A DNA stretch of 64,000 nt from an uncultured virus (IMG/VR IMGVR_UViG_3300045911_000603). Its lineage: Duplodnaviria; Heunggongvirae; Uroviricota; Caudoviricetes. The stretch lies in the IMG/VR virus record IMGVR_UViG_3300045911_000603. One strand, written 5' to 3'. Under the pieces are notes generated by a model, which saw nothing but the letters and a program-made list of their open reading frames with translations, was not told where the DNA came from and made no database searches. Below are positions 32,078-59,994 of this stretch, piece after piece. Positions within the stretch are counted from its first letter, which is position 1. Each line of letters starts with the position of its first letter. The translations under genes were made by a program, and so were the position numbers.

Positions 32078-32362
32078 TCACATGGAAAGTCCCTCCTCAC
32101 TCTCGCCGGTGAGGGCTTCCGATTCGCCGGTGAGGGCTTCCGATTCGCCGGTGAGGGCTTCCGATTTTTCCGCTTCTTCGGCAGCAATCGCGGCAATTCG
32201 TTGAACCTTCTGTTCCAGCTTCACCGCTTCCTGCAAAAGATCGAAGAGAGCCATTAGCGCGAACTGATTGCCGCCAAAGATGGCGTCCTTATGGGCCGCC
32301 CGCAATTCCTCTATGAAGAACTGGAACGAGTCCCTTGCTTTTGTTATGTTTTCGGTTTGCAT
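32078..32362 (-). CDS. Small hypothetical protein with (SEALTGE)x3 and C-terminal EEGLSM
   Basis: Co-oriented ORF; carries the shared C-terminal tag. Confidence 0.6.
   Translation of the reverse strand: MQTENITKARDSFQFFIEELRAAHKDAIFGGNQFALMALFDLLQEAVKLEQKVQRIAAIAAEEAEKSEALTGESEALTGESEALTGESEEGLSM
32103..32165. repeat. 21-bp tandem repeat x3 (TCGCCGGTGAGGGCTTCCGAT)
   Basis: Seen directly; in frame within 32078-32362. Confidence 0.95.
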
Positions 32363-32373
32363 AATTCTTGGTT

Positions 32374-33411
32374 CTACATCGCAGTGATCTCGCTCTCCTC
32401 CTCGTCCTCCCCGGAGGCTTGGGGTGATGGCATTGTCCTTGGAGACATTTTGGGAGCTTGCGCTCGGTCGGCCACCAAAGATTCGTCAAGAAATTGCTTA
32501 ACCTCATACGATAATTGCAGATCGCCCCTGCTTGCATGGATCTTCTGGAGAAGCTCCGCATCAAATTCACGCTCTGGTCCCGCCCACGGCTTCACGAATA
32601 TGATTTCGTTGGGATGATCCTTCACATGCCGCAGTAAATAACCAAGTTCATGAAACGCATAAGACCAGCCTCGTTCCATCATGCTTTGCCATTGCCCATT
32701 CGAAGCCACGCCTGGCCGAATCATTTCCCCCGTTGCATCGTCCCGAAGCAGTAGAAATACTTTCGCCAGTTCTAGCTGCTCGGTAGATTCCAGAATCGCG
32801 TTGAAAGCCTTGGTGATGGCCTGCTTGGTCATCTCATACTCTGGTAGCTTCACTATCGCATCCCCAACACATACTCCGATCTGCCAATGATACTCCGGTT
32901 TGGATTTATCATCCGTATCCGGACGAAAGCAGCGGAGTCGCATTTTAATACTGGGGGAGTCCCATTTCCTTTCCACCTTGCAAATAACCTCGCCGTATAG
33001 ATTCCTTTCCACGAGCCAACCTTTTTGCTCGGCAGTCGGCTTCACGGCATCAAAAAGAACATCCATTCCTTGCGCCAAGGTCTTGGAGTTCGGAGGACGC
33101 GGCGGCAGGGTTTGCGGATAAACTCGGAGCATCACATTTGTCCATTCGTCCACGCACTCCACTTCCCCGCGAACATTGGGAAACTCCTTCTCGACCGCAC
33201 GCACCATGCGCCAGGCCGCCTTAATATCCTCCTTGCCTGGGGTTTCGTCATAAACGCTCCCGGCGTCACGGGTTGAGAACAGCAACTTCCTTTTAGCAGC
33301 GTCCTCACCATCAAAGGTTAGGCATGTGCTTTGGCTTTCGCGCTGCAATCGCGGAATGATTTTTTTTACATCCTCAAACGAGGGAACTGGCTTGGTTTTC
33401 GGCGCAGCCAT
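32374..33411 (-). CDS. Hypothetical protein, paralog of 34782-35780
   Basis: Shared block VEKEFPNVRG...RVYPQTLPPRPP; ends EEEESEITAM. Confidence 0.65.
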   Translation of the reverse strand: MAAPKTKPVPSFEDVKKIIPRLQRESQSTCLTFDGEDAAKRKLLFSTRDAGSVYDETPGKEDIKAAWRMVRAVEKEFPNVRGEVECVDEWTNVMLRVYPQTLPPRPPNSKTLAQGMDVLFDAVKPTAEQKGWLVERNLYGEVICKVERKWDSPSIKMRLRCFRPDTDDKSKPEYHWQIGVCVGDAIVKLPEYEMTKQAITKAFNAILESTEQLELAKVFLLLRDDATGEMIRPGVASNGQWQSMMERGWSYAFHELGYLLRHVKDHPNEIIFVKPWAGPEREFDAELLQKIHASRGDLQLSYEVKQFLDESLVADRAQAPKMSPRTMPSPQASGEDEEESEITAM

Positions 33412-33809
33412 AATTTCACTCCTCGTTCTTGATTGCATCCCACTGCGCCCTAAGCGTGTAGTATTGGAGGTTGCCCTCATGCAGAAATCCCGCCATTCTC
33501 CTGGGTCAAATCATCTTCACAGAAGCCCAAGAACATTTCCACCCCATAGCCCTTGGCCAAGGTTCCCGCAATTTCCTTGGCATATCCAAGGTCATGGTAA
33601 TCCCCCACATGCCCTGCCAATCCGGGGAAATCCCCATCCCAACCGGCCCGACGCACATAGACTGCGAAAAAACCTCCTCGTCATTGGGTGGCGTGTCATC
33701 GCCAAAAAGCTGCGTTGGACTCCCATCAATACTGTCATAATACAGCCTGGCTACGTCCACGCGAGTTACTTCTTGCATGAGAAAAACTCCAAATGCTGCC
33801 ACAAAGGTT

Positions 33810-34325
33810 TCACATTCCTTGCGTCATTTCCTCTTCATTGTCAGTCTCTTCCTGCGGAGTCTCCTGTGCGTTTTTTCGGCGCGCAAGCTCGGCTTCGAGT
33901 TCTTCGGTGCTTACGTCCTCCAGCGGGGAGCGAGTAGCTTCGGTATTCTCGGCCTCTATTTTGCGCATCGTGGAGCGTGCTTGACTTGAGGCAATGCGCC
34001 ATGCGCGGAGCAGATCATCCGATTCCTCAAGAGACTCGATGTGATCTTTGGCCAATTGGATGGCCTCCTCAAGATCCGCCCCATCCATTTTCGTAATTCT
34101 TCCGCCGTGCTCCTCAAAGTATCCTTGATTGCTGCCATACCGATCATCAATCACGACGCGAACCTCGCCGCTTGGAATCAGATAGTAGGACACTTCTCGA
34201 AATCCTATGCCGCCCCCTGGCGGATTCCAGTAGCCCTGATCGTCACTGCCAAGTTCGAGGTTGCCTTTTTCGGTGAGGTTAAGGTTAAGTTTTTTTGCGA
34301 GTGCTTCGAGGTTGATTTTTTTCAT
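33810..34325 (-). CDS. Acidic hypothetical protein
   Basis: 171 aa, Glu-rich, ends EEEMTQGM. Confidence 0.65.
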   Translation of the reverse strand: MKKINLEALAKKLNLNLTEKGNLELGSDDQGYWNPPGGGIGFREVSYYLIPSGEVRVVIDDRYGSNQGYFEEHGGRITKMDGADLEEAIQLAKDHIESLEESDDLLRAWRIASSQARSTMRKIEAENTEATRSPLEDVSTEELEAELARRKNAQETPQEETDNEEEMTQGM

Positions 34326-34393
34326 AAGTTTGGGTGTTTGCTTTATTGAGTTGAGAACGGTAATAATTCGCCGCCAATCAAAATTTCCTGTGG

Positions 34394-34693
34394 TTACATG
34401 GAGATCTCTTCATCTTCCCTTGCTTCCTGGGCGGCCTTCCATTCGGAAACCGGGATTGGGGTCCAGTGGAGATCGAGTGTAATCCAATTCGTGCCAAGGA
34501 TTTCCACGAGGGAAATATATCCCCTCTCCGCACCATAGCCCAAGTTGGCATAGCCGTAGGCTTGATGTTGGCCCGGCTCTTCCTCATCGCCCGCATCCTT
34601 CTCGATGATATGGAAGTCGCATCTTCCTCCGAAATAGTGCAGATAAATGAGCGGATCATCGGTGGACCTCCGGGCCTCGTAGGTGGCAGGCAT
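34394..34693 (-). CDS. DUF2958-like small protein (possibly frameshifted at its 5' end)
   Basis: LHYFGG..D..I.E.D...QAYG..LG...E.GYIS..E......LDLHW.P pattern; ends EDEEISM. Confidence 0.6.
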   Translation of the reverse strand: MPATYEARRSTDDPLIYLHYFGGRCDFHIIEKDAGDEEEPGQHQAYGYANLGYGAERGYISLVEILGTNWITLDLHWTPIPVSEWKAAQEAREDEEISM

Positions 34694-34781
34694 CGTGCGA
34701 ATGCGTTACGCTGTGCATTTTCGGATTTACTCATTCCAAGTGTGCTCATGTAAAATTATTTATTTACCAAGCTCGGCAGAG

Positions 34782-35780
34782 TCAAGCTGATAAATGCGGC
34801 AAAGATTCTTCCTCGGCGCAGCTTGCGATCATGGCATCGCCTGCGGCCAGCAATGCACCCCAACGCGGATCTTCCCGCATGGAGCGCATCGTCAGGGGAC
34901 CGACATGAAAATCCGTCAGGGACGCCAGACGAGCATCCAATTCGGTCGTCAGCGGCAATTTTTCCAATGGATGCCACGGACAGACCAGGACAACCTTCTG
35001 TGGATGGTGGGGATTCGCAAAGCAATTCACCAGGGAAGGCATTGCGGATTCCGGCAAAAAGGTGCCGGTTTGCTGTCCTCGGGCCCATGATTCCTTGGTC
35101 CATCCCGGGGGAGCAATGGGCTGGCCATCTGCATCCCCTCCGACAAACGTGACCCGGGCCAGGCGAAATTGACAAGACAGATCGCAGAGATGGGCAAATG
35201 CGGTCACGATCTCCTCGCCCTGCAACTTGTTTTTGGGCGTGGGGCATATAACGCCGCTGTCCCCAACGCGCAGGTTCATGCGCCATGCTTGGGATGGTTC
35301 ATGGACAATTTGCGGATCGAGCCAAATGCGCACAGATTCCCCGGATGGAGCTTGCATGGCAAATCCTGGAGCCAGCGCATTCTCCGTGGATGCGTGCAGG
35401 GTGAGCTTGGTTGAGCGAGGGATCATGCGGCGGATGGATGGCAGGACTTCCGCCAAGGCGCGGTAGCGGTCCTTGCTGGATGGTGGTCTTGGAGCAAGTG
35501 CCTCGGGATAAACTCGGAAGCGCAGGACCAATCTGCCTGCCTCCGATCCCACACCCCCTCGCACATTGGGAAACTTGCGCTCCACCTCCTTGCGCATTTG
35601 GAGGACTTTTTGCGGGCAGGCGTCTGGTTTGCCGCCCTCCCAGGTCAAATCGCAGAAGTATTCATTCTCCATGGGGCGTAAGGTCGCCCCGGTCTGGCGA
35701 ATCTTGGCATCCAATTCGTGACTTAGGCGGGAAAATGTTTCCCGCTGCACATCATCTTCGGTGGATTGAGGCTTGGACAT
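34782..35780 (-). CDS. Hypothetical protein, paralog of 32374-33411
   Basis: VERKFPNVRG...RVYPEALAPRPP; ends EEESLPHLSA. Confidence 0.65.
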   Translation of the reverse strand: MSKPQSTEDDVQRETFSRLSHELDAKIRQTGATLRPMENEYFCDLTWEGGKPDACPQKVLQMRKEVERKFPNVRGGVGSEAGRLVLRFRVYPEALAPRPPSSKDRYRALAEVLPSIRRMIPRSTKLTLHASTENALAPGFAMQAPSGESVRIWLDPQIVHEPSQAWRMNLRVGDSGVICPTPKNKLQGEEIVTAFAHLCDLSCQFRLARVTFVGGDADGQPIAPPGWTKESWARGQQTGTFLPESAMPSLVNCFANPHHPQKVVLVCPWHPLEKLPLTTELDARLASLTDFHVGPLTMRSMREDPRWGALLAAGDAMIASCAEEESLPHLSA

Positions 35781-35840
35781 GCTTGGATGCTAAAACGCAC
35801 GCACCCCCTCATGCAATGCACAACAGAATCCCGAGACGGT

Positions 35841-36569
35841 TCATGCGGAAACCCCGCCTTCCTCCCCATAAACAGCGCAGCAAAATTCCTTGAGGTAATC
35901 CTCTGCCGTAACCCCATACGGGCGTTTCGTGGCAAACCAAAGCACCCAAGTATCGAGGGTTTCAATTGCGGATTGCCGCCCGGTGAAGGCCTCAAACCAT
36001 TCGCTGGAATCCTTCACCGCTTGATGCACGACATCGTAATTATACCCCTCCAACGGAACAATCCGGTTGCTACCACCGTGGCCATCGTTGGACACACGCA
36101 AAATCGGCCTGCCTGCCTTCCAAATTTCAGCCGAGAACGCCAGGGTTTCCTCGCTCAAGTGCTCCGCCGACTTGAACTTGCGAACCTCATAACAATCCAT
36201 GGGCGTTTTCTTGGTGTCGATAGCCAAGGGTTCCGACGATGGAAAGACCTGCCCATAAGGAATGAAAACAACTTTCTCGCCCCCATCTTCAACCACTTCC
36301 AGACCATGGGATCGGCGGGCAGAGACAACGCCAAACCGCTTGCTCTTGGTGGCAGGATCCTCCCACTCCACCCGGTCGTTCTTGCGCAAAAGGAAGTGAG
36401 GAGGTATCGGGGTGTCGCTCGGAAGAAAGGCAGCTTCGTCCCCGGATAAGAGCAGACCATCATCGGTGACAACCGAGATTTTGCCATTCCTATTGGAAAG
36501 CACCATTCCCTCCTTCAGGAATCCCTCCACTGGCCGCAAGGTCTTGATTCGTTGGCCTTTGGTTATCAT
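35841..36569 (-). CDS. Hypothetical protein
   Basis: SEETLAFSA...VSNDGHGG motif; ends EEGGVSA. Confidence 0.65.
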   Translation of the reverse strand: MITKGQRIKTLRPVEGFLKEGMVLSNRNGKISVVTDDGLLLSGDEAAFLPSDTPIPPHFLLRKNDRVEWEDPATKSKRFGVVSARRSHGLEVVEDGGEKVVFIPYGQVFPSSEPLAIDTKKTPMDCYEVRKFKSAEHLSEETLAFSAEIWKAGRPILRVSNDGHGGSNRIVPLEGYNYDVVHQAVKDSSEWFEAFTGRQSAIETLDTWVLWFATKRPYGVTAEDYLKEFCCAVYGEEGGVSA

Positions 36570-36581
36570 AGGGTGTTCTCC

Positions 36582-37424
36582 TTACATTTTGATGCCGTCA
36601 TCGGCTGGAAGGTCGCTCATGGGAGAATCGTTCCATCGCCCAGGGAATTTAACCTTCCCCGACGCCTCGAATTCGAACTGCGGAGTTTTGATGGCCTCGG
36701 CCAGAACCTCCAGAACCTCATCCGTGGAGCAGGTCTCACTCGCCACAGGATTGCTCTCTGCGGCAAAGTTCGAGACGGCTCCACGCAGCAGCAGGGCAGC
36801 AGCAGTCATCCCGCCAGACCGTTCTTCCCGCAGGAGAGCATCTGTTATGGCGTCCTGAACGAGAGGAGTCGAACAATGCTGCTCCGTGCGGGCAAGCATT
36901 CCCAACACTGGACCAATGACATTCGGCTCAACCTGCCCGAGATCGGTTCCTGCTAGGAAAACCTTGCGAGGCGTCCCATCGGAATTCTTCACGCCATTTC
37001 GCGCAAATTCCCGATTGATGACATGGGCAAGGAACATTTGCGCGGAGCGGGCAGTCGGGAAATCAATCGTGGGACGCTTATCGCTGTCCTTGAACATACC
37101 GATCAGATCACGCACGCTCATTTGCTGCGAAACGAGCAGAATCACATCGCCCACGGTCTGCGCAATAAACGAATCGCTTCCCGGGAATTCACCCGCACAA
37201 ACACTCTGCTCGGCCAGATCGTTAAGCAGGGTATCAGGGATCATTACGCTCTGGCCCTCCTCGGATTTGTATTCACCAGGGGAGGAAATGATTTCTTGGA
37301 TGGTTTGGACCGTCAAAGACAACGATCCAAGTCCCATTTGGAACCCCTCTTGGTGTCCTTCCATTCCAACCGCACGCCTGGCGTTGGTCTTTACGGACTG
37401 CTCAATAATCGCGTCACAATACAT
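36582..37424 (-). CDS. Hypothetical protein
   Basis: Likely start MYCDAII at 37424 (avoids overlap with upstream gene); ends ADDGIKM. Confidence 0.6.
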   Translation of the reverse strand: MYCDAIIEQSVKTNARRAVGMEGHQEGFQMGLGSLSLTVQTIQEIISSPGEYKSEEGQSVMIPDTLLNDLAEQSVCAGEFPGSDSFIAQTVGDVILLVSQQMSVRDLIGMFKDSDKRPTIDFPTARSAQMFLAHVINREFARNGVKNSDGTPRKVFLAGTDLGQVEPNVIGPVLGMLARTEQHCSTPLVQDAITDALLREERSGGMTAAALLLRGAVSNFAAESNPVASETCSTDEVLEVLAEAIKTPQFEFEASGKVKFPGRWNDSPMSDLPADDGIKM

Positions 37425-37473
37425 TGTGACTCTTCGCGCCGTATCCTTGTTGCAAATAAATCTCTGCATAAGG

Positions 37474-38214
37474 TTAGCAGGAGATGCTTGATCCCTCATC
37501 CGCATCCGCCACGGCATACTCTTCGGCAGTTGCCACGGCTGGCGTGATGGCCACATAAGCTCTAATTGCTCCCCGCCCATCGGTCGAGAACCCTTCGATT
37601 CGAGCGGTGTCGCCATCTGCATTGATGAGGACATCCACATCCTTGCCAGCATCGTGCAAGTCCATGAGATTGCGCAGCGTGAGGGGAACAAAGGTTTGCG
37701 ACTCCCGATCCCCGACTCGTCCCTCCAAGATATAACTAACCGCAGTGGGTTTTTCGGCACCGGATTCCCCATCGAAGCGGATCTTGTAGCCGAATACTTC
37801 ATGGTCCTGATTGATCCGAGCGGTTGCCACCAGAACAGGAGCGTGCTTGCCTTTGGTCAGCATGGTTTGGCCATCCTTGACATATTCCCGTTGGACTGGA
37901 GTTCCGATGCCGATTTCATTGGTGATGGGTTTCTTTTTCCCGTCCACCACTACCACTTCGCGGACTTTGAGGATTCCTCCCGCCGCCAATTCCAGGACTT
38001 CATCAGGGGAAAGGGTCTTGCCAAACAGATTGCCCTTGATGGCGAAAAATTCGTTCTTGGTCTTATCCAAGACGCTGTAGTTGACCAGTTCGCGCCCTGT
38101 ATTGGGAGAGGTGGTCTTGGTGCAGAACACCGCAAATTGCTCATTGCTGGCCACAGGTGTTTTCTTGGTGTTGGAGTTGCCGATGCTGGCAATGTCATTT
38201 TCGATTTTACTCAT
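37474..38214 (-). CDS. Hypothetical beta-rich protein
   Basis: 246 aa; ends DADEGSSISC. Confidence 0.65.
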   Translation of the reverse strand: MSKIENDIASIGNSNTKKTPVASNEQFAVFCTKTTSPNTGRELVNYSVLDKTKNEFFAIKGNLFGKTLSPDEVLELAAGGILKVREVVVVDGKKKPITNEIGIGTPVQREYVKDGQTMLTKGKHAPVLVATARINQDHEVFGYKIRFDGESGAEKPTAVSYILEGRVGDRESQTFVPLTLRNLMDLHDAGKDVDVLINADGDTARIEGFSTDGRGAIRAYVAITPAVATAEEYAVADADEGSSISC

Positions 38215-38252
38215 GGTGTTATTTTGGTTGGGTTGGTGGTTGGGTGATTGGA

Positions 38253-39170
38253 TTACATGCTGATGCCTGCGGATTCACTCATTGCGGTTTCGAGCATATC
38301 CATGATTTCGGTGTGACCTTTCTCCTTAGCCAAGCGCAGGACAAAATCATCCCAGACGTGGAGGTTTGCACCCCGGTCCAACAGCAGAGCAACCGTTTCC
38401 TTGCGTCCAAACCTTACTGCCTCGCGCAAGGCTTCATCAGCCTTGGCATGAATATCAGCCCCACGGTCCAACAGCAGAGCAACAGTCTCGGTGTGACCTT
38501 TCTTCGCTGCCTCGCGCAGGGCTTCATCTTCATTGGCATGGATGTAGGCCCAGCGATCCAGAAGCAGGGACACAATCTCGGTATGACCGTGCGCCGCTGC
38601 AAGGCGCAGGGCTTCATACTCCTGAACGTAAATATTCGCCCCACGGCGCAAGAGCAGGGACACCGTTTCCGTGTGGCCTTCACTGGCTGCAAGGCGCAGG
38701 GCTTCATCATTCTTGGAATGGATGTTGGCCCCACGGCGCAAGAGCAGGGACACGATCTTGGTGTAACCGTGCGCCGCTGCAAGGCGCAGGGCTTCATCAT
38801 CCCTGGCGTGGATGTTGGCCCCACGGTCCAACAGCAGGGACACCGTTTCCTTATGGCCGAAATATGCTGCCCAGCGCATGGCTACATCTTCGTAGGAGTT
38901 GATATTCGCCCCGCGAGCCAAGAGCAGTTTGACCGTTTCCGTGTGGCCATTCTGCGCTGCAAATCCAAGAGCTTCATCATCCCTGGCATGAATGTCGGCC
39001 CCCCGGTCCAGGAGCAGAGATACGATCTCGTCGTAACCGCTCAAAGCTGCAAGGCACAGAGCTTCATCATCTTCGGCATGGATGTTTGCGCCTTGGTCGA
39101 GCAGTTTTTCCACTTCGGCGTTGTCGCCTCTGGCTACCGCTTCAAGGAGTATTTTGTCCAAGTCCTTCAT
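38253..39170 (-). CDS. Ankyrin-repeat protein (about 9-10 repeats of 30 aa)
   Basis: Repeat GHTETVSLLLDRGANIHARDDEALRLAAAH; start MKDLDK at 39170; ends SESAGISM. Confidence 0.9.
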   Translation of the reverse strand: MKDLDKILLEAVARGDNAEVEKLLDQGANIHAEDDEALCLAALSGYDEIVSLLLDRGADIHARDDEALGFAAQNGHTETVKLLLARGANINSYEDVAMRWAAYFGHKETVSLLLDRGANIHARDDEALRLAAAHGYTKIVSLLLRRGANIHSKNDEALRLAASEGHTETVSLLLRRGANIYVQEYEALRLAAAHGHTEIVSLLLDRWAYIHANEDEALREAAKKGHTETVALLLDRGADIHAKADEALREAVRFGRKETVALLLDRGANLHVWDDFVLRLAKEKGHTEIMDMLETAMSESAGISM

Positions 39171-39177
39171 GTGTGGT

Positions 39178-39576
39178 TTATGCGCTGATGCCTGCGGATT
39201 CCTCTTCAACCTCTTGGCTCGCGGCGGCTTTGGCTTCCAGCAGGGCGACGATTTTTGCGTGACCACCATCCTTGGCCCAACGCAGAGCTGCGTCATGTTC
39301 GGCATGAGCGTTCGCCCCACGGTCCAAAAGTAATTCGACAATCTCGATGTGCCCTTTCCATGCCGCCCAACGCAGGGCTTCATCATCCATGGCATGGATG
39401 TCGGCCCCACGGTCGAGGAGCAGGGCCACCGTTTCCTTGTGGCCTTTAGTAGCTGCGAGAAACAGGGCTTCATCATCTTTGCGATGAATGTTTGCGCCTT
39501 GGTCGAGCAGTTTTTCCACTTCGGCGTTGTCGCCTCTATCTGCGGCTTCAAGGAGTTGTTCGTCCAGGGATTTCAT
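39178..39576 (-). CDS. Short ankyrin-repeat protein (about 3-4 repeats)
   Basis: Same repeat type; start MKSLDEQ at 39576; ends EEESAGISA. Confidence 0.9.
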   Translation of the reverse strand: MKSLDEQLLEAADRGDNAEVEKLLDQGANIHRKDDEALFLAATKGHKETVALLLDRGADIHAMDDEALRWAAWKGHIEIVELLLDRGANAHAEHDAALRWAKDGGHAKIVALLEAKAAASQEVEEESAGISA

Positions 39577-39589: not shown

Positions 39590-39856
39590 TTATGCGCTGA
39601 TGCCTGCGGATGCACTCAATGATTCAAATACATCCTCCGCATCCAAGGTATGCGCCGGAGAAAACCCTGACTCCTTGAGTTCATTCCACATCGCAGCGAT
39701 TGCCTCTTCGCTTCGCCCCTCGGCCCGCAAATTGTCCACATCGACAATCACGGCTTTGTGGTCGGCAGGGTTTTCCCCCCGCCGCTCCATGACAGCCTGG
39801 ACATTGCCGCCCTCCACCCACACAACCAGCAGACTCTTTGACTTTTCGGATAGCAT
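39590..39856 (-). CDS. Small hypothetical protein
   Basis: Preceded by a conserved promoter; ends SASAGISA. Confidence 0.65.
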   Translation of the reverse strand: MLSEKSKSLLVVWVEGGNVQAVMERRGENPADHKAVIVDVDNLRAEGRSEEAIAAMWNELKESGFSPAHTLDAEDVFESLSASAGISA

Positions 39857-39899
39857 AAATTATTTATATACCATTGCGGTGGCTCCTGTCAATCCCAAT

Positions 39900-40252: not shown

Positions 40253-40325
40253 CGTGCCCGGCAGGATTCGAACCTGCGACCTACGCAGGGGGAATGCGCC
40301 GCTCATTTGTTCAGCCTACAAACTC
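40253..40325 (-). pseudogene. Degenerate tRNA-like sequence
   Basis: Perfect T arm GCAGG-TTCGAAT-CCTGC, 3' acceptor CGGGCAC-G, anticodon-like arm GCGCA-TTCCCCC-TGCGT; D arm and 5' acceptor strand are mismatched. Confidence 0.55.
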
Positions 40326-40971
40326 AGAGTAGTTTCCCGAGAACAAAACCCACAAGGATGGCGACCAATGGGACAAGAAAATTGACGAGCACTTGCCAAC
40401 GTCCCAACTCCCCCAGGTATTTCACCGCCTCGTGGATCGTCTTGTAGTGATTCGGCAGTTGTTCCAGTAGCTCGACATTGCTCTTGTGTAACTCCTGCAT
40501 GGCCTCCTGGGCCAACTTGGTTGATTCGACAACGGCATTGGAAGATTCGCTCACATCGGCCACGCGATTAACATGACGCTCCATCTCCTCCAGAAGGGCG
40601 ATCTGGAAAAGTTCGCTTTTTTCGCCTACTTTGACAAGTCGGTGAATGGCATTTCGGAATCTCGCATCGGCCAGCCCCATGGTTTCCACCAGTAGGAACA
40701 CTGGATCCTCCGGGTGGACTCCCTTGCTCTCCCACAGTTGCCGCATGTGCTCGATGGCCGGCAACTCGTGAAAACATGCCTCGGCAGCCACTCGCTCCTG
40801 CCGCACCTCATTGAAGGCAGTTTCAACCTTCTGGCGAAAATTGTTCTGCGCTTCTTCTTGCTGATCGACCTCACGAACGGCTTCCTCGTCCAATCCTTCA
40901 TCGGCCATGATTTCGAGGATTTCATCCTCGGTCAAACCAGACGTATCATCTGGCCTAAAAACGCGAGCCAT
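40324..40971 (-). CDS. TraM-like (IncP-type) protein
   Basis: GVHPEDPVFLLVE motif, coiled coil, C-terminal TM; follows traK- and traL-like genes. Confidence 0.55.
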   Translation of the reverse strand: MARVFRPDDTSGLTEDEILEIMADEGLDEEAVREVDQQEEAQNNFRQKVETAFNEVRQERVAAEACFHELPAIEHMRQLWESKGVHPEDPVFLLVETMGLADARFRNAIHRLVKVGEKSELFQIALLEEMERHVNRVADVSESSNAVVESTKLAQEAMQELHKSNVELLEQLPNHYKTIHEAVKYLGELGRWQVLVNFLVPLVAILVGFVLGKLL

Positions 40972-40983: not shown

Positions 40984-41790
40984 CTACTTGGCAGCAGGGA
41001 GGAAATACGCTTCCGCTTTGGCAATCTCCTCGCTCATGCGTCGCCACAATCCGCGAAAGCGGTTCCGGTCAAGTAGATTGGGTGCCTGGTCCACGGCTTT
41101 GCGCACCGAGAGGGTTTCTTTGGTCAGATAGATGGCCGAGCTTTCCATCAGCCGTTCGACATTGATTTCTATACCCCCCAAGCCAAGGCCGATCTTCCGC
41201 GCAGAACTATTCTCCCACAGCAGCGAATTCTTGGCGTTCTTCCGGTTGAGGGCGAAAACCCAATCAACCTTGTCGCCAATATCGTCCAAGAGGGATTTGG
41301 TTTGCAGGATCACATCACGGTCCTCCTCCACCATGACCACAAAGGTCACGCGAAACCCAAGCTCCTCGGCGGCTTGGAAAATATCCACATCCTTGAGCCA
41401 GGCGATGATGGTTTTCTTCTGCTGCGAGCCAAGACCGTCGAGAATCGAAACATCCACGTCATTGAGCACCATCACCACCCGATCAAGAGCATTGCCCTGA
41501 TCGGTGTCGATAAACTCCGTGCAATCTTTGTGGAATGTTAGAAGGGTTTTGTTGGCCTCGTCGGGATCAAAAGCGGCAAAGGTTGGCTTGCTGGGATGCT
41601 CCTTGAGCCATTCAATCAGTTGAATGAGAAAGAAGGACTTTCCCACCCCTCCCTTGTTGGAGACGGAGACGATGATGCGTTTGGTTGGTGTGCTCATTAC
41701 TTGTTTTTGTTGAGTTTTTCTACGGTTTTGTTTTGGAGACTTTTCCTCGGAATGGGAAGCCTTTTTTGGGGTTTTCGCTTTACTTGTCAT
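40984..41790 (-). CDS. TraL/StbB-like P-loop ATPase (ParA/MinD superfamily)
   Basis: NKGGVGKS, FDPDEAN; alternative start at 41697. Confidence 0.75.
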   Translation of the reverse strand: MTSKAKTPKKASHSEEKSPKQNRRKTQQKQVMSTPTKRIIVSVSNKGGVGKSFFLIQLIEWLKEHPSKPTFAAFDPDEANKTLLTFHKDCTEFIDTDQGNALDRVVMVLNDVDVSILDGLGSQQKKTIIAWLKDVDIFQAAEELGFRVTFVVMVEEDRDVILQTKSLLDDIGDKVDWVFALNRKNAKNSLLWENSSARKIGLGLGGIEINVERLMESSAIYLTKETLSVRKAVDQAPNLLDRNRFRGLWRRMSEEIAKAEAYFLPAAK

Positions 41791-43442: not shown

Positions 43443-45680
43443 TTACAATTTCTTTCTACGCGGTGGCTTCTGCTTGCGCTTGGCAACGAAAACACTGTGG
43501 AGCCACACCAGCCAGCGCACTCGCAAGCTCTCCTTCTTCACGGCAGTATTGACCCAGTGCGGCAATTCCCCGTTGACCGTCACCGGAGGAATATACCCCA
43601 GCGTCCACTCCCCGTCAGAATGCCGGACGATGGCGTGAAACTTCGGCAGCTTGGATTTCATCTCATGGGGTTCAATGTGGTATTGGAACTCCTCCTGGTA
43701 GGAATAGCTTGGTCCTTGGCGGCTCGTGCTGCGCGATTTCTTGATCTTGCGCACCTTTCCCAGCCAATCCGCACTTTCCTGCGCACATTCAATGCTGGCA
43801 GGCGCGAAAATAAAACGGGAGCAGAGGTTGGAAATGATAATCTCCGCCCGCTCCTTGTTGCCCAGGCCGGTTTTCAGCGCACCTTTGGTTTGCGTGGCCA
43901 TGATGGTCGTGGTCTGGCTTTCGCGCAGTTTGTCCACCTCGCCATCAATATCCTGGATAAAGCTCTGCGCCTCATCCTGCAAGCAAAGGAGCAGGTTCCA
44001 GCCCGCTCGATCATCCATCCGCTGGTCAAAGCGGCGCAGCGCGTGATTGTAGAAAAGGAGCTTCAAGATGGTGCAGACATACTGCCGATGCTTCTTGAGC
44101 TTCTGCGGCATGGCCACGCAAACCACCATGCCACGGTCCACTTCCTTGAACTCAAAGGTGGTGTCCGTGCAGAAAACCTCGGCCACGTTCTCATCGATAA
44201 AGTAGTTGAGGTAGTTGCCTATATTCCCCATGACACTTGCCCACGTATCCTTGGCCAGTCCGAGATAGTTCTTCTCCAGGTGATTGAGGGCACCCTGCAT
44301 TTGCCTGGTCGCCTCTTGGGTTTTCTCCAGCCATTCGGCGGGGTCCATGTCCGGTGGCATGGCTGTGGCATAATTCTCCACCGGGCATTCGCTGCGCATC
44401 TTATAGTATTTGAGGTAAGATGTCAGATAGGTCTTGTCGGTAAGCAATTTATGGCAATGGCGCAAATTGGGCAGATGATCGTTGATCGGAAACTCCGTAA
44501 TCTCGTTGGGCTTGTTGATGATGTCGGGAGCATGAGGGATATTTCCCGTCAACCGATTGTGATCCCGAACGGCTCTGTCGAGTTTGATGGCCCACCCAAT
44601 ATGGGTCGCCGCTTGCGTGATGAAATATGCGCTATTTCCGCCTCCATCGCCCCCACCCTCCACGCCTTGCGCGGTCTTGACGATGATGTTGGCATACGAG
44701 TCGGCATTCGTGTTGTCGTCGCCGAGCAGGTTGAACCGGCTTTCGGGCCTCCATCCAGGCTTTGCCCAATCGGGCCGCGTCTGGATCAGGCAAAGGTGGT
44801 GCATGCGCTTGTAATGCTTGAAGATTCCCCGAAGGATCTGATACCAGCTCCCCTTCTCGTCGATAGCCAGGCCACCCCATGGAGCGACGGAATACTTGCC
44901 CAACTCGTTTTTGCGCATCCAGCCGTAGGTTGCAAAATTGACCGTCCGCATTTGTTCCTCTATCGCTCCCCACTGCTGGTCGAGAGCTTCCACCTTCGCC
45001 TCGGCCTCCATCATCGCCGCACGGGCAGCTCGCATTTCCTCCATCTGATTCAACCCTTCGGCAGCAATCATCCTGTTCCGCGCCTTCTCCACTTCCGTCT
45101 TGGCTTCTGTGACCAGTTTGGATGTTTCCTCCAACTTCGCTTCCAATTCCTTGGTTTCACGCTCCATACGGGCAATGACTTCCCGCTCGGCTTTCTCGGA
45201 CTCACTCCCCAAGTAAGAATCCCTGATGACACCCGTTTCCGTCTGGCACAGATTGTGAATGATGGGATTGATGCCGCTCTCGGTTTTGCCCACACCAGTG
45301 CCTCCGGTGATTAACCACCCACGGCAAAAAGCATTCCGATCCCAGTCGAGCTTCTTGCGCTTAACCCACAGCCACAAGGGAGCAAGGCTGAAAACTTCAA
45401 GCTGACAAGTGGTGCCTGGAGGCACCGTGGACTTCCCGGATTGTGGGGAACCTGGTTCCCTGAATACGGTAGAGCAAACCACGCCCCCAACAAGGAAACC
45501 AAGTGCCGGATAGAAGAACGCGGCATACTCCACGGCCCAAATTGGCGCAGCCCCTTGGATCCGCTCAAAGATCCACCACACCGGAGGGATCAACTCAAAC
45601 CGATTGCACACTAAATAGGAAAGCATCGCTCCCGCCAGCCCGCCAAAAAAGAAGAAAATCATGCGGCCTTTGTTCCGCAA
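43443..45680 (-). CDS. virD4: VirD4/TraG-like type IV coupling protein
   Basis: Two N-terminal TMs, Walker A GGTGVGKT, Walker B LQDEAQ, ATQ motif, ESADWLG. Confidence 0.85.
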   Translation of the reverse strand: MRNKGRMIFFFFGGLAGAMLSYLVCNRFELIPPVWWIFERIQGAAPIWAVEYAAFFYPALGFLVGGVVCSTVFREPGSPQSGKSTVPPGTTCQLEVFSLAPLWLWVKRKKLDWDRNAFCRGWLITGGTGVGKTESGINPIIHNLCQTETGVIRDSYLGSESEKAEREVIARMERETKELEAKLEETSKLVTEAKTEVEKARNRMIAAEGLNQMEEMRAARAAMMEAEAKVEALDQQWGAIEEQMRTVNFATYGWMRKNELGKYSVAPWGGLAIDEKGSWYQILRGIFKHYKRMHHLCLIQTRPDWAKPGWRPESRFNLLGDDNTNADSYANIIVKTAQGVEGGGDGGGNSAYFITQAATHIGWAIKLDRAVRDHNRLTGNIPHAPDIINKPNEITEFPINDHLPNLRHCHKLLTDKTYLTSYLKYYKMRSECPVENYATAMPPDMDPAEWLEKTQEATRQMQGALNHLEKNYLGLAKDTWASVMGNIGNYLNYFIDENVAEVFCTDTTFEFKEVDRGMVVCVAMPQKLKKHRQYVCTILKLLFYNHALRRFDQRMDDRAGWNLLLCLQDEAQSFIQDIDGEVDKLRESQTTTIMATQTKGALKTGLGNKERAEIIISNLCSRFIFAPASIECAQESADWLGKVRKIKKSRSTSRQGPSYSYQEEFQYHIEPHEMKSKLPKFHAIVRHSDGEWTLGYIPPVTVNGELPHWVNTAVKKESLRVRWLVWLHSVFVAKRKQKPPRRKKL

Positions 45681-47526: not shown

Positions 47527-47552
47527 AATGCGATCAAGACAAAATCGCTGCC

Positions 47553-47819
47553 ATGCTACACAAACCAAGCCGCCAACAAGACCAAAGTATCCTGCCATAC
47601 CTCGTCGGAAATGGCGGTTCCTCGCAAGAGAAAGCAACCAAATGCGCGAGGGTTATCCTCTGGATTCAGGCCAAACTCACCGGACTCCAAGAAATGGAGG
47701 CGGAATTTCGGGGCATGGACGAAGGCGAAACCTCCGCCGAAGTTCGCGGATACCGGCTGGCCTTGGAGGAAGTCCAAGAACAACTTCGGGAGGCTCTCGA
47801 AATCCCCAAGGGACTCTGA
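47553..47819 (+). CDS. Small hypothetical protein
   Basis: Packed between rep-like and scpB-like genes. Confidence 0.45.
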   Translation: MLHKPSRQQDQSILPYLVGNGGSSQEKATKCARVILWIQAKLTGLQEMEAEFRGMDEGETSAEVRGYRLALEEVQEQLREALEIPKGL

Positions 47820-47825
47820 AAGAAA

Positions 47826-49353: not shown

Positions 49354-50648
49354 AAATGCGCGAGGAAACCCACGGCTTCAGCCGTGGGAGGAATCGCGCC
49401 TCCTTTTGTGGTTGACATGTTCTGAAAAATTTATAGTTTCGGTTTGTATTGAAAGCCATACGGATAGTCAAAATCAAGTTTGCCGGAGATATCGCACATT
49501 ATAATACTACGTGCGCACACTACCTTTCGGCTCTGAACTGGATCTCTCCGATTGTTTTCAGCAGCAAGGAATTGAACTCCCGGAAGCTGCACAATCAGTT
49601 CTATGGTGCTGTGCGAGAGAAGTTCAAGCTTCCCTCCCAGTTGACCTGCTCGCTGTTTCGACAAGTAACTGCTACTTACAAAACGGCCAAAGCCAATAAT
49701 CGCTGGCGACTGGCGATCTACAAAAAGCCTGCGGTGCCAGTCACCTACCGGCGTGACTTCTCTAGGAACCAGAAAGGCGTCACAATACTCGGGAAGCCAG
49801 TTGAATTGATCGGCCCCAAGGTTCCTGACTCCGGTTGGAAGGATTCCAAGATCAAACGTGTAGGCAACCAGTGGTATTTGATTCTCTCTCACGAGATCGA
49901 GATCCCAGAACCAAAGATTACAGGTTGCATTGTAGGCGTGGACTTTGGCGTAAAACGCCTCCTGACCGCTACCAATTCTAACAATCAAAAGACATTTTTC
50001 TTCAAAGGCGGGGAGTTGAATCACCGTCGTTTGTGCATCCGGCGCACCCGCGCCGCTGTCCAATCCGTTGGCACCAAATCTTCCAGACGCCTGCTCCGCA
50101 GGATGTCCGGAAATGAGGCAGCCGTAACGGGGCACCTCTTGCATGTCGCCTCCAAGGCATTGGTCAGCTACGCGGTTGAAGTTGGGGCGCAACGGATCGT
50201 CTGCGAAGATTTGAGCAACGTGCGAGACGCCTCGCTCAAAAAAGGGAAAGACCTCAGATCCAAAGTCCACCGCTGGCCCTACGCCCAAGGTCAGTTCTTT
50301 ATTGCCTACAAGGCGGCAGCGGCGGGTATCGGGTTTGAGCGGGTCGATCCTCGCAACACCAGCCGGGGCTGCCCCCGGTGTGGTTACGTCTCGGCATCCA
50401 ACCGCAAGGGCCTGCACTTCAAGTGCGGCCAATGCGGACATCAGGATGATAGCGACCGCAACGCCTCTGAAAACATTCGTCTGCGGTCTGTTCTGGCTTC
50501 GCAATGCGATGACAGAACGGGGAGCACTAAGTCCCCTCTTGAAATCTGCGACCCGTTGATCTCGGATCTGGAGTGTTCGGTTATTCGACATTCTGGTTTC
50601 GGTGTAGGGTTGGGATAAACCCCATGGCTTTAGCCGTGGGATACTTAG
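49354..50648 (+). mobile_element. IS200/IS605-family element, tnpB only (IS1341-like)
   Basis: Subterminal hairpins CCCACGGCTTCAGCCGTGGG (49369-49388) and CCCATGGCTTTAGCCGTGGG (50621-50640); no tnpA; exact ends approximate. Confidence 0.85.
49449..50618 (+). CDS. tnpB: TnpB RNA-guided endonuclease
   Basis: RuvC-I GVDFG, RuvC-II VCEDL, Zn finger CPRCG/CGQCG, RuvC-III DRNASENI; upstream TTGACA-N16-TATAGT. Confidence 0.92.
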   Translation: MKAIRIVKIKFAGDIAHYNTTCAHYLSALNWISPIVFSSKELNSRKLHNQFYGAVREKFKLPSQLTCSLFRQVTATYKTAKANNRWRLAIYKKPAVPVTYRRDFSRNQKGVTILGKPVELIGPKVPDSGWKDSKIKRVGNQWYLILSHEIEIPEPKITGCIVGVDFGVKRLLTATNSNNQKTFFFKGGELNHRRLCIRRTRAAVQSVGTKSSRRLLRRMSGNEAAVTGHLLHVASKALVSYAVEVGAQRIVCEDLSNVRDASLKKGKDLRSKVHRWPYAQGQFFIAYKAAAAGIGFERVDPRNTSRGCPRCGYVSASNRKGLHFKCGQCGHQDDSDRNASENIRLRSVLASQCDDRTGSTKSPLEICDPLISDLECSVIRHSGFGVGLG

Positions 50649-51105
50649 CAAAGATGGAACGCTTGTTCACCAAGCGAATCTTGCTTGGCAAATCGGCGGG
50701 GATCGCCTGCTTCGCGGCCAACAGGGATGCGGCCCGAATAAGCTCCGACAGGCTTGGTTCCCAAGATTTATCTTGGGAATGAGATTTCAGCCGTCCAGAA
50801 AGTTTCTGCAAGGCGGCAATCGTGTCACCTGCTAGGTAGATGGTTGTTTTCACCCCTTTGCCTTTACTCCCTTCGCCAGAGGAGGGTTGGGTTCCTGCGG
50901 GGGAGGGGGCAATGGATTTCTTCTTCTCGGCTTCGCCCACTGAAAGATCATCCAGGGGGGTTGGTGCAGAAGTGGGGGGAGTTTTCTCCTCCGATGCTGC
51001 GGGCATTTTCGTCGCAGAGGATGGATACGGCGGGGTTTGATGGATCAGGTTTCCAACCATGCTCTTGAGGAGCTTGGTGGTTTCCGTGGGCGTGTTCTTC
51101 GGCAT
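50581..51105 (-). CDS. Ribbon-helix-helix partition adaptor (ParG-like), 3' end replaced by the IS right end
   Basis: Disordered N-terminus, KTTIYLAGDTIAALQKL...SLSELIRAA; directly downstream of parA. Confidence 0.65.
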   Translation of the reverse strand: MPKNTPTETTKLLKSMVGNLIHQTPPYPSSATKMPAASEEKTPPTSAPTPLDDLSVGEAEKKKSIAPSPAGTQPSSGEGSKGKGVKTTIYLAGDTIAALQKLSGRLKSHSQDKSWEPSLSELIRAASLLAAKQAIPADLPSKIRLVNKRSIFAKYPTAKAMGFIPTLHRNQNVE

Positions 51106-51115
51106 ATAGTAGGAT

Positions 51116-51935
51116 GTATGACGGTGTGACAGTATGACGAATTACATGGCAAGGATGTTTATGGCAACCTTCTGAACCTCATCTTGGGCATAACGATTGA
51201 GGGCTTTCCAACCCAGCACAGCAGCCATCTGGTATTGCGTCCGGTGACGAAGCCCGCTTTCCAGAGGCAGACAGGGCCAGGACTCAATCAGTTCATCCCG
51301 GTTCTCGGACAGGTTGTTGCGAATGATCTTGTTGAATAGGATGCGCACCCGATCCGTGGAGCCTCGCAATTCCTTGAGCAGGTGGACGGTCTGAAAGCTG
51401 GTGGCCAGATCAAGCGGGGAAGGGCCGACCACCACCACAACCTTGCCAGCAACCCGCATGGCTTCCCTGGTTGGCTCGTAGTCCAAACGAGGGGCGGTGT
51501 CGTAGATCACCTGCTGCGTATCGGGTCCAATCTCGGTGGGAAGCCCGATTTGTTTGGCAGCGGCCAGCGCAGAACCTTGAGGATCATGGTCAAGAACCGC
51601 GACCGATAACCCACAATGACGGAGAGCTTCGGCAAGTAGAATGGTTGTCGTGGTTTTCCCCACCCCGCCCTTGCCGTTCACAATAGCGATAGAAGAAACA
51701 GAGTTCACGAGCGGATGATACGCAGCAGGTGCCGGCCAACGACAAGTAAAAAGTATGACATCGCACCATGCGCCGTCATACTGTCATACGAATGACGGTA
51801 TGACAAATGCTCCGCAGGAGATAATTGTCATGGGAAGGTCCAAGCAAGCGAGAGTGCTATTTCGATGCGAGCTTGGGAACAGGGTCAGACGGTGATATGT
51901 ATGACAGATTACCATCCTACACGCCACCGTCATAC
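51116..51935. promoter_or_regulatory. Clusters of GTATGAC/GTCATAC repeats flanking parA (candidate centromere/operator)
   Basis: Copies at 51116, 51124 (variant), 51132, 51753, 51775, 51783, 51798, 51899, 51929; several at 8-bp spacing. Confidence 0.6.
51142..51708 (-). CDS. parA: Type Ib ParA partition ATPase
   Basis: KGGVGKTT, LDHDPQGS, YDTAP; short, no N-terminal HTH. Confidence 0.9.
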   Translation of the reverse strand: MNSVSSIAIVNGKGGVGKTTTTILLAEALRHCGLSVAVLDHDPQGSALAAAKQIGLPTEIGPDTQQVIYDTAPRLDYEPTREAMRVAGKVVVVVGPSPLDLATSFQTVHLLKELRGSTDRVRILFNKIIRNNLSENRDELIESWPCLPLESGLRHRTQYQMAAVLGWKALNRYAQDEVQKVAINILAM

Positions 51936-52569
51936 ATGCGCACGCCTTAGTCCTCGCAAACGCCACCTGATTCTCAGCTTTATCTCCTGCGGCACCATCC
52001 AATTCGCAGGGAGGCGAAAGGACTGGTTGAGCCGTCGCTCTCTCATGGGGCTGCAAATTGGAATAGTCCAGCGAGAAGGGTTCCCAATCCAGTGACGGTG
52101 GTTAGTCCCATGCCTACTATGGTGGGATATGGATCGGTCCATCGAGCGATGGAGCCGAACAAAAGGACTGCGGCCATTTGCGCAATCAAGAATCCTACCC
52201 CAAGGATTAAACCGATTCCGACAATGATGATGCCTGCTGCAATCATGGATCGAAATCCTTCATCGCACTCCAAGAGTGATTTGTCACTCCTGAAATACAC
52301 CCACGGCTAAAACCGAGGGGGAAGTCTTGCATCCATGATTGCGGAAAATTCGCGCACCCCTACCCCGGGGCATAACAAACGTCGGCCCGTGCCTATGCAG
52401 CAATCAGCCAAGGCCGGACTGAACTCTTCTCGGAGTGATCGACAGTGTGTTCTAAGACGCAGCGAACAGCCTGGATCGAAAAAAGGTTTGCTCCCCATGC
52501 TTGGGTGGCACCAGTCAAGAGGGGTGGAGGGTGGAAAAAGTGTCAAGCGTTCTCCAATTTCATGCAGTA

Positions 52570-52731
52570 TCATGTAGTAACTCGTAGTAACGCATAGTAA
52601 CCCGTAGTAACGGATAGTAACAGATAGTATCGGATAGTAACGGATAGTAACGGATAGTATCGGATAGTAACGGATAGTATCGGGTAGTATCGGATAGTAA
52701 CGGATAGTATCGGATAGTATCGGATAGTATC
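52570..52731 (+). repeat. Array of about 16 10-bp units (CGGATAGTAW consensus)
   Basis: Seen directly; unit CCCGTAGTAA is the reverse complement of the 45790 array unit. Confidence 0.92.
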
Positions 52732-52734
52732 TAA

Positions 52735-52775
52735 TGAAAGTAAGGTGCGTAGATCTTCCTTGCGGGAAGATTTGC
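52735..52775. other. Candidate oriT
   Basis: Immediately upstream of relaxase; AAGGTGCGTA resembles the R388-type nic-proximal sequence; hairpin ATCTTCC-TTGCG-GGAAGAT. Confidence 0.35.
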
Positions 52776-52814
52776 CTTGCGGAACCCCTCGCGCCAAATC
52801 TACGGTCCCTTGCC

Positions 52815-54083
52815 ATGCTCAAGATTCGCTGCCGCCATGATGCCGGTCCCGCAGCCAAATACTTCACGCAGGACTGCAACCTCTCGGCCGAGGAACGTGT
52901 AGGAACCTGGGGCGGCAAGCTGGCCGCAGGATTAGGTCTGCAAGGTGATGTTGACCCCAAGGACTTCCTCTCCCTCCTGCACGGGTTCCACCCCAAGGGA
53001 TTTCCCATCTGCGCCAGGCTCCATGTCAATCGACGATCCGCTTGGGAAATTGTCCTCTCCCCGGATAAATCCATTTCTATCGCCGCTCTCGCTTCCTCCC
53101 CTTGGAAACAGGCGGTTCAGGACAGCTTCAACGAAGCTGTCCGCTCAACCTTCCAAGTCGTTGAAAGCCTCGCTCACGTCCAAGTCGCCAATGCCCGAAA
53201 ATTCGCACCCACCAAAAACGTAGCCTGCGCAGCCTTCGTTCACCACCATAGCCGCGATGGTGACCCGCACATTCACGCGCATCTCCTCCTCCTCAACTCA
53301 ACCTTCGACCCTCGCTCGCGCCGCCTGCGATCCCTCGAAGTCGAACCCATCTACAAATGCCGCCAGCCTCTTGGCGAAATCTTTGACCGCGAGTTGGCTC
53401 GCTCCCTCCAGCTCCATGGCATCCCTGCCACCCTCTCAGAAAAAGGCGTCGCCATCATTCCCTCCGTGCCCTCTTCGGCCATTTCTCGCCTCAGCAGAGC
53501 AAATCAACGCATTGAAACCCACACCAGAACAGCCAGCGGCCTCGCACTACTCAAAAGTCTCAACCGCCAAAACGCCATCAATCGCATCAATGATCGCACT
53601 CGCCCCAAAAAATCCCAAGCCCGCATCATCCAACCTGATGAAATGCTCACCCGCCACGAACTCCAGTCCATGCTGGCCGGGGCAGGGGAGGGGAGATTGG
53701 ACCGCTTCGCCGCCGCGTCTCCGACCAAAGCAAAAGTTGATGTGAACCAAGCGGTGCGGGCAGCTTTCCTCGCAGACGCTTTCGAGCTAACGCCGAAAAC
53801 CGCCCTGCGTGCTGCCGTTCGCGCCTCCCGGTCCAACCTGCAAATCCCTCTCGGGGACTTTCTGGAAGCCGCCAAGGAACTCAAGCCACCTGGCCCTTTT
53901 CTCCCAAGCCGGTCGAAAATGCCAATTCACCTTCTCCACCTGGCCCACAACCTCGCAACTTCCTCGAAGGAGGAGTTTGCTCCCGCCGAGGGCATTTCAA
54001 CTCAAGCCGATCCCGAGATTCCCGTCACCCGCTTTGGTTCCGTGGATGTTGAGCAAGGTTGGGATGATGCAATTACTATGTAA
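52815..54083 (+). CDS. MOBF (TrwC-type) relaxase without helicase domain
   Basis: MLKI...AAKYF, WGGKLAAGLGLQG, SPDKSIS, HHHSRDGDPHIHAH; ATG at 52815. Confidence 0.88.
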   Translation: MLKIRCRHDAGPAAKYFTQDCNLSAEERVGTWGGKLAAGLGLQGDVDPKDFLSLLHGFHPKGFPICARLHVNRRSAWEIVLSPDKSISIAALASSPWKQAVQDSFNEAVRSTFQVVESLAHVQVANARKFAPTKNVACAAFVHHHSRDGDPHIHAHLLLLNSTFDPRSRRLRSLEVEPIYKCRQPLGEIFDRELARSLQLHGIPATLSEKGVAIIPSVPSSAISRLSRANQRIETHTRTASGLALLKSLNRQNAINRINDRTRPKKSQARIIQPDEMLTRHELQSMLAGAGEGRLDRFAAASPTKAKVDVNQAVRAAFLADAFELTPKTALRAAVRASRSNLQIPLGDFLEAAKELKPPGPFLPSRSKMPIHLLHLAHNLATSSKEEFAPAEGISTQADPEIPVTRFGSVDVEQGWDDAITM

Positions 54084-59992: not shown

Positions 59993-59994
59993 GC

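Follow-up and report, generated by a model that had tools for sequence, protein, structure and literature searches.

Conjugation systems are described as translocating plasmid proteins besides the relaxase (PMC8406263; PMC11288057), and the C-terminal signals on record for type IV secretion systems (T4SSs) comprise a basic or hydrophobic type, the Legionella E-block, a RalF-type end and the last 48 residues of MobA (PMC10025392; PMC7251119; these and the papers cited below are drawn on in part). The signals by which conjugation machines pick protein substrates beyond the relaxase have been described as diverse, and mostly as internal or loosely defined. Here we analyse a 64,000-nucleotide stretch (the window throughout) of the IMG/VR record IMGVR_UViG_3300045911_000603, filed as an uncultured Caudoviricetes virus, which carries a conjugative T4SS element whose relaxase and a contiguous block of 12 accessory proteins share a short, acidic C-terminal tail. 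A preliminary description of this DNA had proposed that the tail is a signal for co-transfer of these proteins through the T4SS.

Among the 67 genes of the window, called with a purpose-written script, all 12 consecutive genes between 32078 and 39856 are tagged, 10 of them with an exact match to [ILV]-[STK]-[MAC]-stop and two with a looser one (EEESEITAM, EEEMTQGM). The relaxase is tagged too. The 13 tagged proteins, named below by the lower coordinate of their genes, represent 11 body families, with two paralogue pairs, 38253/39178 (67%) and 32374/34782 (25%).

52815..54083, plus strand: MOBF (TrwC-type) relaxase of 422 residues, without a helicase domain, ending EQGWDDAITM (PF08751, E 9e-45; NF041492 MobF above cut-off)
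39590..39856, minus strand: orphan of 88 residues, ending SASAGISA, a tail that matches those of the ankyrin genes as a DNA copy (repeat D3)
39178..39576, minus strand: ankyrin-repeat protein of 132 residues, ending EEESAGISA (Pfam Ank_2)
38253..39170, minus strand: ankyrin-repeat protein of 305 residues, ending SESAGISM (Pfam Ank_2, E 2e-66)
37474..38214, minus strand: orphan of 246 residues, ending DEGSSISC
36582..37424, minus strand: orphan of 280 residues, ending DDGIKM; the tail is absent from frameshifted alleles of other samples
35841..36569, minus strand: orphan of 242 residues, ending EEGGVSA
34782..35780, minus strand: protein of 332 residues, paralogue of 32374, ending EEESLPHLSA
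34394..34693, minus strand: DUF2958-related protein of 99 residues (162 in other alleles), ending EDEEISM
33810..34325, minus strand: orphan of 171 residues, ending EEEMTQGM, a loose fit
33477..33656, minus strand: open reading frame (ORF) of 59 residues, overlooked in the preliminary description, ending QENGGISA; start uncertain
32374..33411, minus strand: protein of 345 residues, ending EEEESEITAM, a loose fit
32078..32362, minus strand: orphan of 94 residues with 21-nt tandem repeats, ending ESEEGLSM

Every tail quoted in the preliminary description is present in the gene to which it was assigned. The tripeptide [ILV]-[STK]-[MAC]-stop closes 11 of the 67 window proteins and six of 1,371 distinct background C-termini (Fisher p 1e-11), the background being drawn from other Verrucomicrobiota loci rather than from the host chromosome, and three of these six fall in regions surrounding related elements. 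When at least two acidic residues are required as well, the counts become 8/67 and 0/1,371. The acidic patch first described for the tails is found to this extent in eight of the 11 tripeptide matches; between positions −10 and −4, 38253 and 33477 have a single Asp or Glu and 39590 has none. Across the last 15 residues, net charge is −3 to −6 in all 13 tagged proteins, and tails of −4 or below occur in 9/67 window genes vs 39/1,693 in the background. The proteins end in SM, SA, KM, TM, SC, AM or GM, with terminal Met in seven of the 13 (13/1,693 in the background) and terminal Ala in five. Elsewhere the tripeptide occurs at background frequency, in 5/528 shadow ORFs and at 54/15,698 internal positions, and is thus specific to the C-terminal position.

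Because the pattern was defined on these very sequences, held-out tests were added. With the relaxase tail as the sole query, the block outscores the remaining window genes (p between 1e-5 and 9e-5 after paralogous tails are collapsed). Conversely, when 10 block tails are made into a matrix, the relaxase, which lies 13 kb from the block on the opposite strand, comes first among 55 non-block window genes, and two of the 1,371 background tails score equally high. Leave-one-out scoring was weak for three block tails, 34782 (51/1,371), 37474 (87/1,371) and 33810 (14/1,371). We regard the shared tail as confirmed as a real feature of the window.

The window makes up 64 kb of a 117,073-bp contig with reads from hot-spring and microbial-mat DNA runs. 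Its genes encode the MOBF relaxase, a VirD4-type coupling protein, VirB4, TrbI, an SNF2/methylase-type protein, an ArdC-like protein, ParA and a Cas9-Cas1-Cas2 locus (22 repeats). Relaxase, coupling protein and VirB4 ATPase thus occur together, as in conjugative T4SS elements, with Pfam/NCBIfam matches to TrwC/MobF, T4SS-DNA_transf/TraG-D_C, P-loop_TraG and TrbI. The best plasmid match, that of Opitutaceae TAV5, has the same backbone at 32–42% identity, and 38 of the 40 genome loci with VirD4 relatives are titled Verrucomicrobiota; from these matches the host is probably Verrucomicrobial. The genes of the element that bear most on the tail are as follows.

43443..45662, minus strand: VirD4-type coupling protein, the presumed reader of the tag (PF02534, PF12696)
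20012..22825, minus strand: VirB4-type ATPase, an untagged structural control (PF19044; 33% to the TAV5 plasmid)
40984..41790, minus strand: ParA/MinD-like P-loop ATPase, kept next to VirD4 in related elements; candidate adaptor
40324..40971, minus strand: coiled-coil protein with a hydrophobic C-terminus, kept beside the ATPase in TAV5 and L049 (a metagenomic element of the same backbone); candidate adaptor
23621..29689, minus strand: SNF2 helicase/methylase-type protein of 2022 residues, which we take to be DarB-like; ends EEEPPRIAGVAN, a weak fit
29716..31236, minus strand: ArdC-like protein with an IrrE/M78 metallopeptidase-like domain; ends DLAASAS, no fit to the tag (PF06114; phrog_7245 anti-restriction, E 1.5e-5)

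The tail separates likely substrate from channel: the relaxase carries it, and the channel components (VirB4, VirD4, TrbI, pilin) and the Cas proteins do not. The earlier statement that T4SS structural, Cas and partition proteins all lack the tail thus holds for these and is qualified for ParA (51142), which ends INILAM, a partial fit. To our knowledge, the one function that unrelated soluble proteins share with the relaxase of their element is passage through the T4SS, and we suggest that the tail is probably a C-terminal signal, specific to this element, that marks substrates of the conjugative T4SS. The helicase domain is the usual place of internal signals in MOBF relaxases. The relaxase of the window ends in an extended acidic linker followed by the tail; it lacks the helicase domain that is usual in MOBF relaxases (PMC12857230), an absence that may favour a signal at the terminus. 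Under such a mechanism VirD4, alone or with the neighbouring ATPase and coiled-coil proteins, would bind the tagged protein by its free C-terminus and feed it, unfolded, into the recipient cell; unrelated accessory genes would have acquired the common ending through point change and copying of gene ends; and some dozen finished proteins, their genes expressed from three similar promoters, could enter the recipient alongside the DNA. That VirD4 or an adaptor recognises the tail, that the proteins are translocated and that they act in the recipient are inferences. A complex prediction of VirD4 (residues 95–745) with the relaxase tail scored 0.02, which gives no verdict and is not counted as evidence.

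Conservation of the tag in related elements had been put forward in the preliminary description as a check; the motif itself ends 0/98 genes of the TAV5 plasmid and 0/28 of L049. These sister elements appear to have swapped it for basic tails. On the TAV5 plasmid a Leu-Pro…Arg-rich end occurs in 11/98 genes vs 2/1,599, a pattern picked after viewing, with two of the 11 being one duplicated gene; several of these genes sit between the DarB-like gene and that of the SSB (a protein that binds single-stranded DNA), where the tagged block lies in the window. In L049, net charge is +4 or above in 9/28 tails vs 150/1,665, and the most basic tail is that of the relaxase. In other Verrucomicrobiota elements, the form [ILV]-x-[MAC]-stop closes 5/21 relaxases and 6/32 DarB-like proteins, rows whose members are related to one another, vs 31/1,763 other genes, 2/97 VirD4 and 0/17 VirB4 proteins. 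A wider hydrophobic-x-hydrophobic pattern is found in 17/32 DarB-like proteins and 9/21 relaxases vs 68/1,763, again picked after viewing and with related rows, and serves as a lead only. The Termitidicoccus plasmid was left out of scoring because its record is broken into small ORFs. A fair reading of these comparisons is that likely substrates in Verrucomicrobiota commonly combine a charged patch with a hydrophobic end; of a tight tag running through a whole element, the window gives the one clear case, with TAV5 and L049 suggestive. The tail-bearing unannotated proteins of the TAV5 plasmid (CP007054, loci L001-L002) include those at 54657, 55139, 74770, 77483, 77940 and 79554, and, as a cultured strain's plasmid, it is the most practical system for testing the tails.

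Several observations weigh against a substrate signal. The TAV5 relaxase ends RPPSGRKSSML, which does not match the TAV5 pattern, and the closest relative, L046 (VirD4 61%), is 4.6 kb long and without cargo. In the last 20 loci, [ILV]-x-[MAC]-stop closes 0/4 relaxases and 2/18 DarB-like proteins, and a hydrophobic-x-hydrophobic end is found in only one of the 12 closest DarB-like homologues. Within elements, relaxase and DarB-like tails show no clear co-variation, with permutation p values of 0.09 and 0.16 and further values of 0.017, 0.125 and 0.05. A motif present in seven of 12 relaxases of integrative and conjugative elements (ICEs) failed on 4/4 held-out relaxases. An 8-nt insertion in 36582 shifts the frame and drops DDGIKM in two of three cluster members and three of four runs (the fourth lacks coverage there), so 36582 either can do without the tail or is a gene in decay. 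A weak fit or none is seen in the DarB-like and ArdC-like proteins, which would be the most plausible payload; the DarB-like tail had been listed as a looser fit, and 109/1,371 background tails score equally high. As far as the cited parts of the literature go, conjugative relaxase signals on record are mostly internal (PMC10025392) and the substrates of the F system have no common tail (PMC11288057).

What the preliminary description proposed thus fares unevenly. A T4SS co-transfer signal is, on sequence comparison, the best-supported reading, as relaxase and soluble cargo are tagged together, the tail is an add-on to a domain (see below) and sister elements swap it for a basic one. The anti-defence payload is largely unsupported: no known anti-restriction, anti-CRISPR or anti-SOS family was matched among the 12 tagged cargo proteins in Pfam, NCBIfam and PHROGs (not each protein against each library), and anti-defence matches are confined to two genes downstream, ArdC-like and DarB-like, that carry no tag or a weak one.

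Could the shared ending be a by-product at the DNA level, i.e. the following gene's ribosome-binding site, a recombination repeat at gene ends or simple paralogy? As DNA copies of one repeat (D3), the three SAGIS[MA] tails are counted as one event; Glu-Glu-Gly codons are able to spell a purine-rich site; and the tail of 36582 is missing in other alleles. The last codons vary, however, with Ser spelled TCC, TCT, TCA and AGC, from both Ser boxes, Ile, Leu or Val spelled ATC, ATT, CTT, TTA and GTT, and all three stops in use, and the distance from tail to next start ranges from 7 to 153 nt. This synonymous variation and spacing excludes a ribosome-binding site or a single recombination repeat. 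The other ten tails have no DNA repeat in common among the 20 largest repeat families, the relaxase is on the other strand 13 kb off, and 11 body families are involved. A DNA-level origin is thus largely refuted by the codon and spacing data, and we consider it very improbable; the tail is kept as protein, not DNA. Homologues and alleles speak to the same point. The DUF2958-related protein (34394) runs 22 residues past its last conserved motif, whereas 16 of 18 aligned homologues (a partial match, P0329, being omitted) stop after 9–16, and none of the 18 ends in the motif; this further check on conservation bears out the tail as an add-on to this domain. Among the matches listed, three alleles, compared at >90% identity, change beside the tail and keep their ends: EDEEISM becomes EDGGISM in a 34394 allele from another sample, and two 37474 alleles have an 8-residue deletion directly upstream of EEGSSISC.

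Two other explanations accept the tail as a protein feature. It could be a C-terminal degron, attenuated and ssrA-like, through which ClpXP or some other AAA+ protease would keep the relaxase and a co-regulated set of establishment proteins short-lived. Four of five Verrucomicrobiota transfer-messenger RNA tags predicted with ARAGORN are acidic and then hydrophobic-small (AETEDLALAA, GNNEEMLMAA, ADYEGLALAA, ANEELALAA) and resemble EEESAGISA, and ClpX is described as reading C-terminal motifs of ssrA type and MuA type (PMC12723719). Terminal Ala in five of the 13 tagged proteins fits such a degron, as do the AA ends of 5/18 DUF2958 homologues (50/1,693 in the background), the [ILVMA][AS]A ends of 7/12 related ICE relaxases, and the position of the block behind a common promoter-like element, as expected of a pulsed regulon. 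The MuA-type motif is basic, and could hence cover the TAV5 tails. However, an ssrA-type [LIVM]AA end occurs in 0/67 window proteins, and the frequent terminal Met is foreign to it. The window motif is moreover nearly missing from the chromosomal genes of the phylum, where the signal of a host protease would be expected to recur; the tails of sister elements within this phylum are oppositely charged; and the sigma-factor and helix-turn-helix regulators of the window are untagged. We judge a degron unlikely, but it is the main rival and a serious one, and the two roles could coexist.

Less probable still is that the tail docks proteins, without export, on a hub encoded by the element, such as the 40984 ATPase, the 40324 coiled-coil protein or an ankyrin protein, for localization or regulation. 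This would account equally well for element specificity, related elements keep the ATPase next to VirD4, TAV5 and L049 keep the coiled-coil gene, and a hydrophobic-x-hydrophobic-COOH end is typical of peptide-binding pockets. There is no reason, though, for a relaxase and 11 unrelated families to have a non-export hub in common, and in the source cited the known C-terminal signals shared with relaxases are export signals (PMC10025392).

The favoured reading, a T4SS substrate signal, can be extended, and here we are more tentative: Verrucomicrobiota conjugative elements may deliver a payload of a dozen or more uncharacterized proteins, ankyrin-repeat proteins included, via a private C-terminal code of fewer than 10 residues, whose hydrophobic end is conserved and whose charge is specific to the element. 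Once the payload has entered, this end might also serve as a degron for its removal. If such a private code holds, the secreted proteome of any element of this kind would be readable from its sequence; a six-residue tag on the relaxase and twelve proteins gives a list of candidate delivered proteins without known function. If the tail is instead a degron, it would be a new and plasmid-specific one.

A promoter-like element (TTGAC, about 17 nt, an AT-rich box, then TAAATAATTT beside the ATG) precedes the genes starting at 39856, 34749 and 31236, its core occurring three times vs 0.10 expected; a generic promoter scan, which gave seven sites vs 10.6 expected, missed it.

39857..39892, minus strand: promoter-like element, abutting the first ATG of the tagged block
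34751..34785, minus strand: second copy, within the tagged block
31237..31273, minus strand: third copy, before the ArdC-like and DarB-like genes

Since this element is common to them, the tagged, ArdC-like and DarB-like genes look like one regulon. Directly upstream of the relaxase, at 52610–52729, lie at least 11 copies of a 10-nt repeat, a candidate site for an accessory protein of the origin of transfer (oriT) or for partition. The relaxase is described as entering the recipient last (PMC11541004); if oriT lies upstream of the relaxase near this array, the block would be 13–21 kb into the entering strand, an estimate to which we give no weight.

Cargo matches are confined to the two ankyrin-repeat proteins and the DUF2958-related protein, nine of the 12 having no informative match in the libraries tried; two cargo proteins had no usable match in the ESM Atlas. 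Single-sequence folding of the 36582 protein gave a predicted local distance difference test score (pLDDT) of 39. The DUF2958-related protein folded confidently (pLDDT 88), and its model had no Foldseek match at E 0.001, with a best Z of 3.5. The window allele of its gene is without about 130 nt near the start (34693–34749) relative to other samples. Two runs have an insertion at 33666, which suggests that the 33477 ORF has a longer allele. Repeat content of the tandem ankyrin genes (38253–39576) varies among samples, with joints that skip 316–532 nt in three runs, suggesting ongoing rearrangement or the assembly of repeats.

Several untagged proteins of the element (29716–32016, 5768, 46225) have Ala-rich ends (DLAASAS, ATASAA, KQAAVA, AAQAA, IEEAA); these may represent ordinary degrons that are separate from the tag. 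Three small genes beside the T4SS genes (4896–5820, 8650–9045) encode near-identical C-termini, NTTGW or DTTGW, and presumably type IV pilin-like N-termini. Between the tagged block and the VirD4 operon lies a degenerate tRNA-like sequence (40253–40325, minus strand), which could be an attachment-site relic or a tRNA mimic; it scores 29.6 bits with the Rfam tRNA model, barely above cut-off, and was missed by ARAGORN. The Cas9 (1198 residues), Cas1 and Cas2 genes and 22-repeat array borne by the element occupy 56396–62929; Cas9 had no match at E 1e-40 among 401 Verrucomicrobiota genomes, and the spacers gave a single 21-nt partial match among the loci compared, to viral locus L278. A PDB sequence search with the ArdC-like protein returned no significant match.

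Relatives of the relaxase were not found in genome contigs, a protein search returning its own cluster only, and the VirD4 and VirB4 alignments had no match in viral contigs. The DarB-like alignment matched 80 viral loci, which lie outside the tail counts. A VirD4 gene also occupies a conserved chromosomal site in Chthoniobacterales-type genomes (L006, L007, L014, L022, L023, L028, L067 and L078, at about 9400–11400 in each), some with TrbI and VirB4 nearby and none with a relaxase or DarB-like gene within 10 kb; these are possibly domesticated T4SSs.

Among known systems, the Legionella Dot/Icm signals, an E-block (EExxE, read by DotM) and a RalF-type end, resemble the window tails, which have a Glu-rich block near the C-terminus and a terminal hydrophobic residue, and the Dot/Icm system likewise serves many unrelated substrates, some of them ankyrin-repeat proteins (PMC7251119; PMC10025392). 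Unlike this type IVB effector system, the window holds a conjugative VirB4/VirD4 element with a MOBF relaxase, and its tail is shorter, tighter and also present on the relaxase. No Dot/Icm components were found among 55 proteins (Pfam) or 26 (NCBIfam) of the window, 64 of 117 kb, with no search aimed directly at DotM, and the ankyrin protein falls far under the cut-off of the Dot/Icm effector models (NCBIfam). The Agrobacterium VirB/VirD4 signal (VirF, VirE2, VirE3; MobA, 48 residues) is short, transferable and common to relaxase and other substrates, as proposed here. The basic tails of TAV5 and L049 resemble its general type, whereas those of the window are of opposite charge (−3 to −6), and the target would be a bacterial recipient.

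Non-relaxase plasmid proteins are described as entering the recipient via the conjugation channel for pED208 (ParA, ParB1, SSB, ParB2, PsiA, PsiB) and ColIb-P9 (the SogL primase) (PMC8406263). These cases differ in that no common C-terminal motif is reported in the parts cited, F-system signals being diverse and either C-terminal or internal (PMC11288057). XVIPCD and BID are C-terminal modules on many substrates, BID also on relaxases (PMC10025392), but both are folded domains (XVIPCD of about 120 residues), whereas the signal here would take fewer than 10 residues. The ssrA tag and the ClpX C-motif 1 place acidic and then hydrophobic and small residues at the free C-terminus, as the window tails do; ssrA tags end in Ala-Ala, while the tails end in Ser, Thr or Lys followed by Met, Ala or Cys, with Met in 7/13. 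A literature search, in which most subscription journals and supplements were outside coverage, returned no paper on a common tail across plasmid cargo or on these elements, nor did Verrucomicrobiota conjugative elements surface in it. Thus, while C-terminal T4SS signals are already known, what appears to be new, to judge from that search, is that a relaxase and an entire accessory block carry one short tag in common while sister elements use another.

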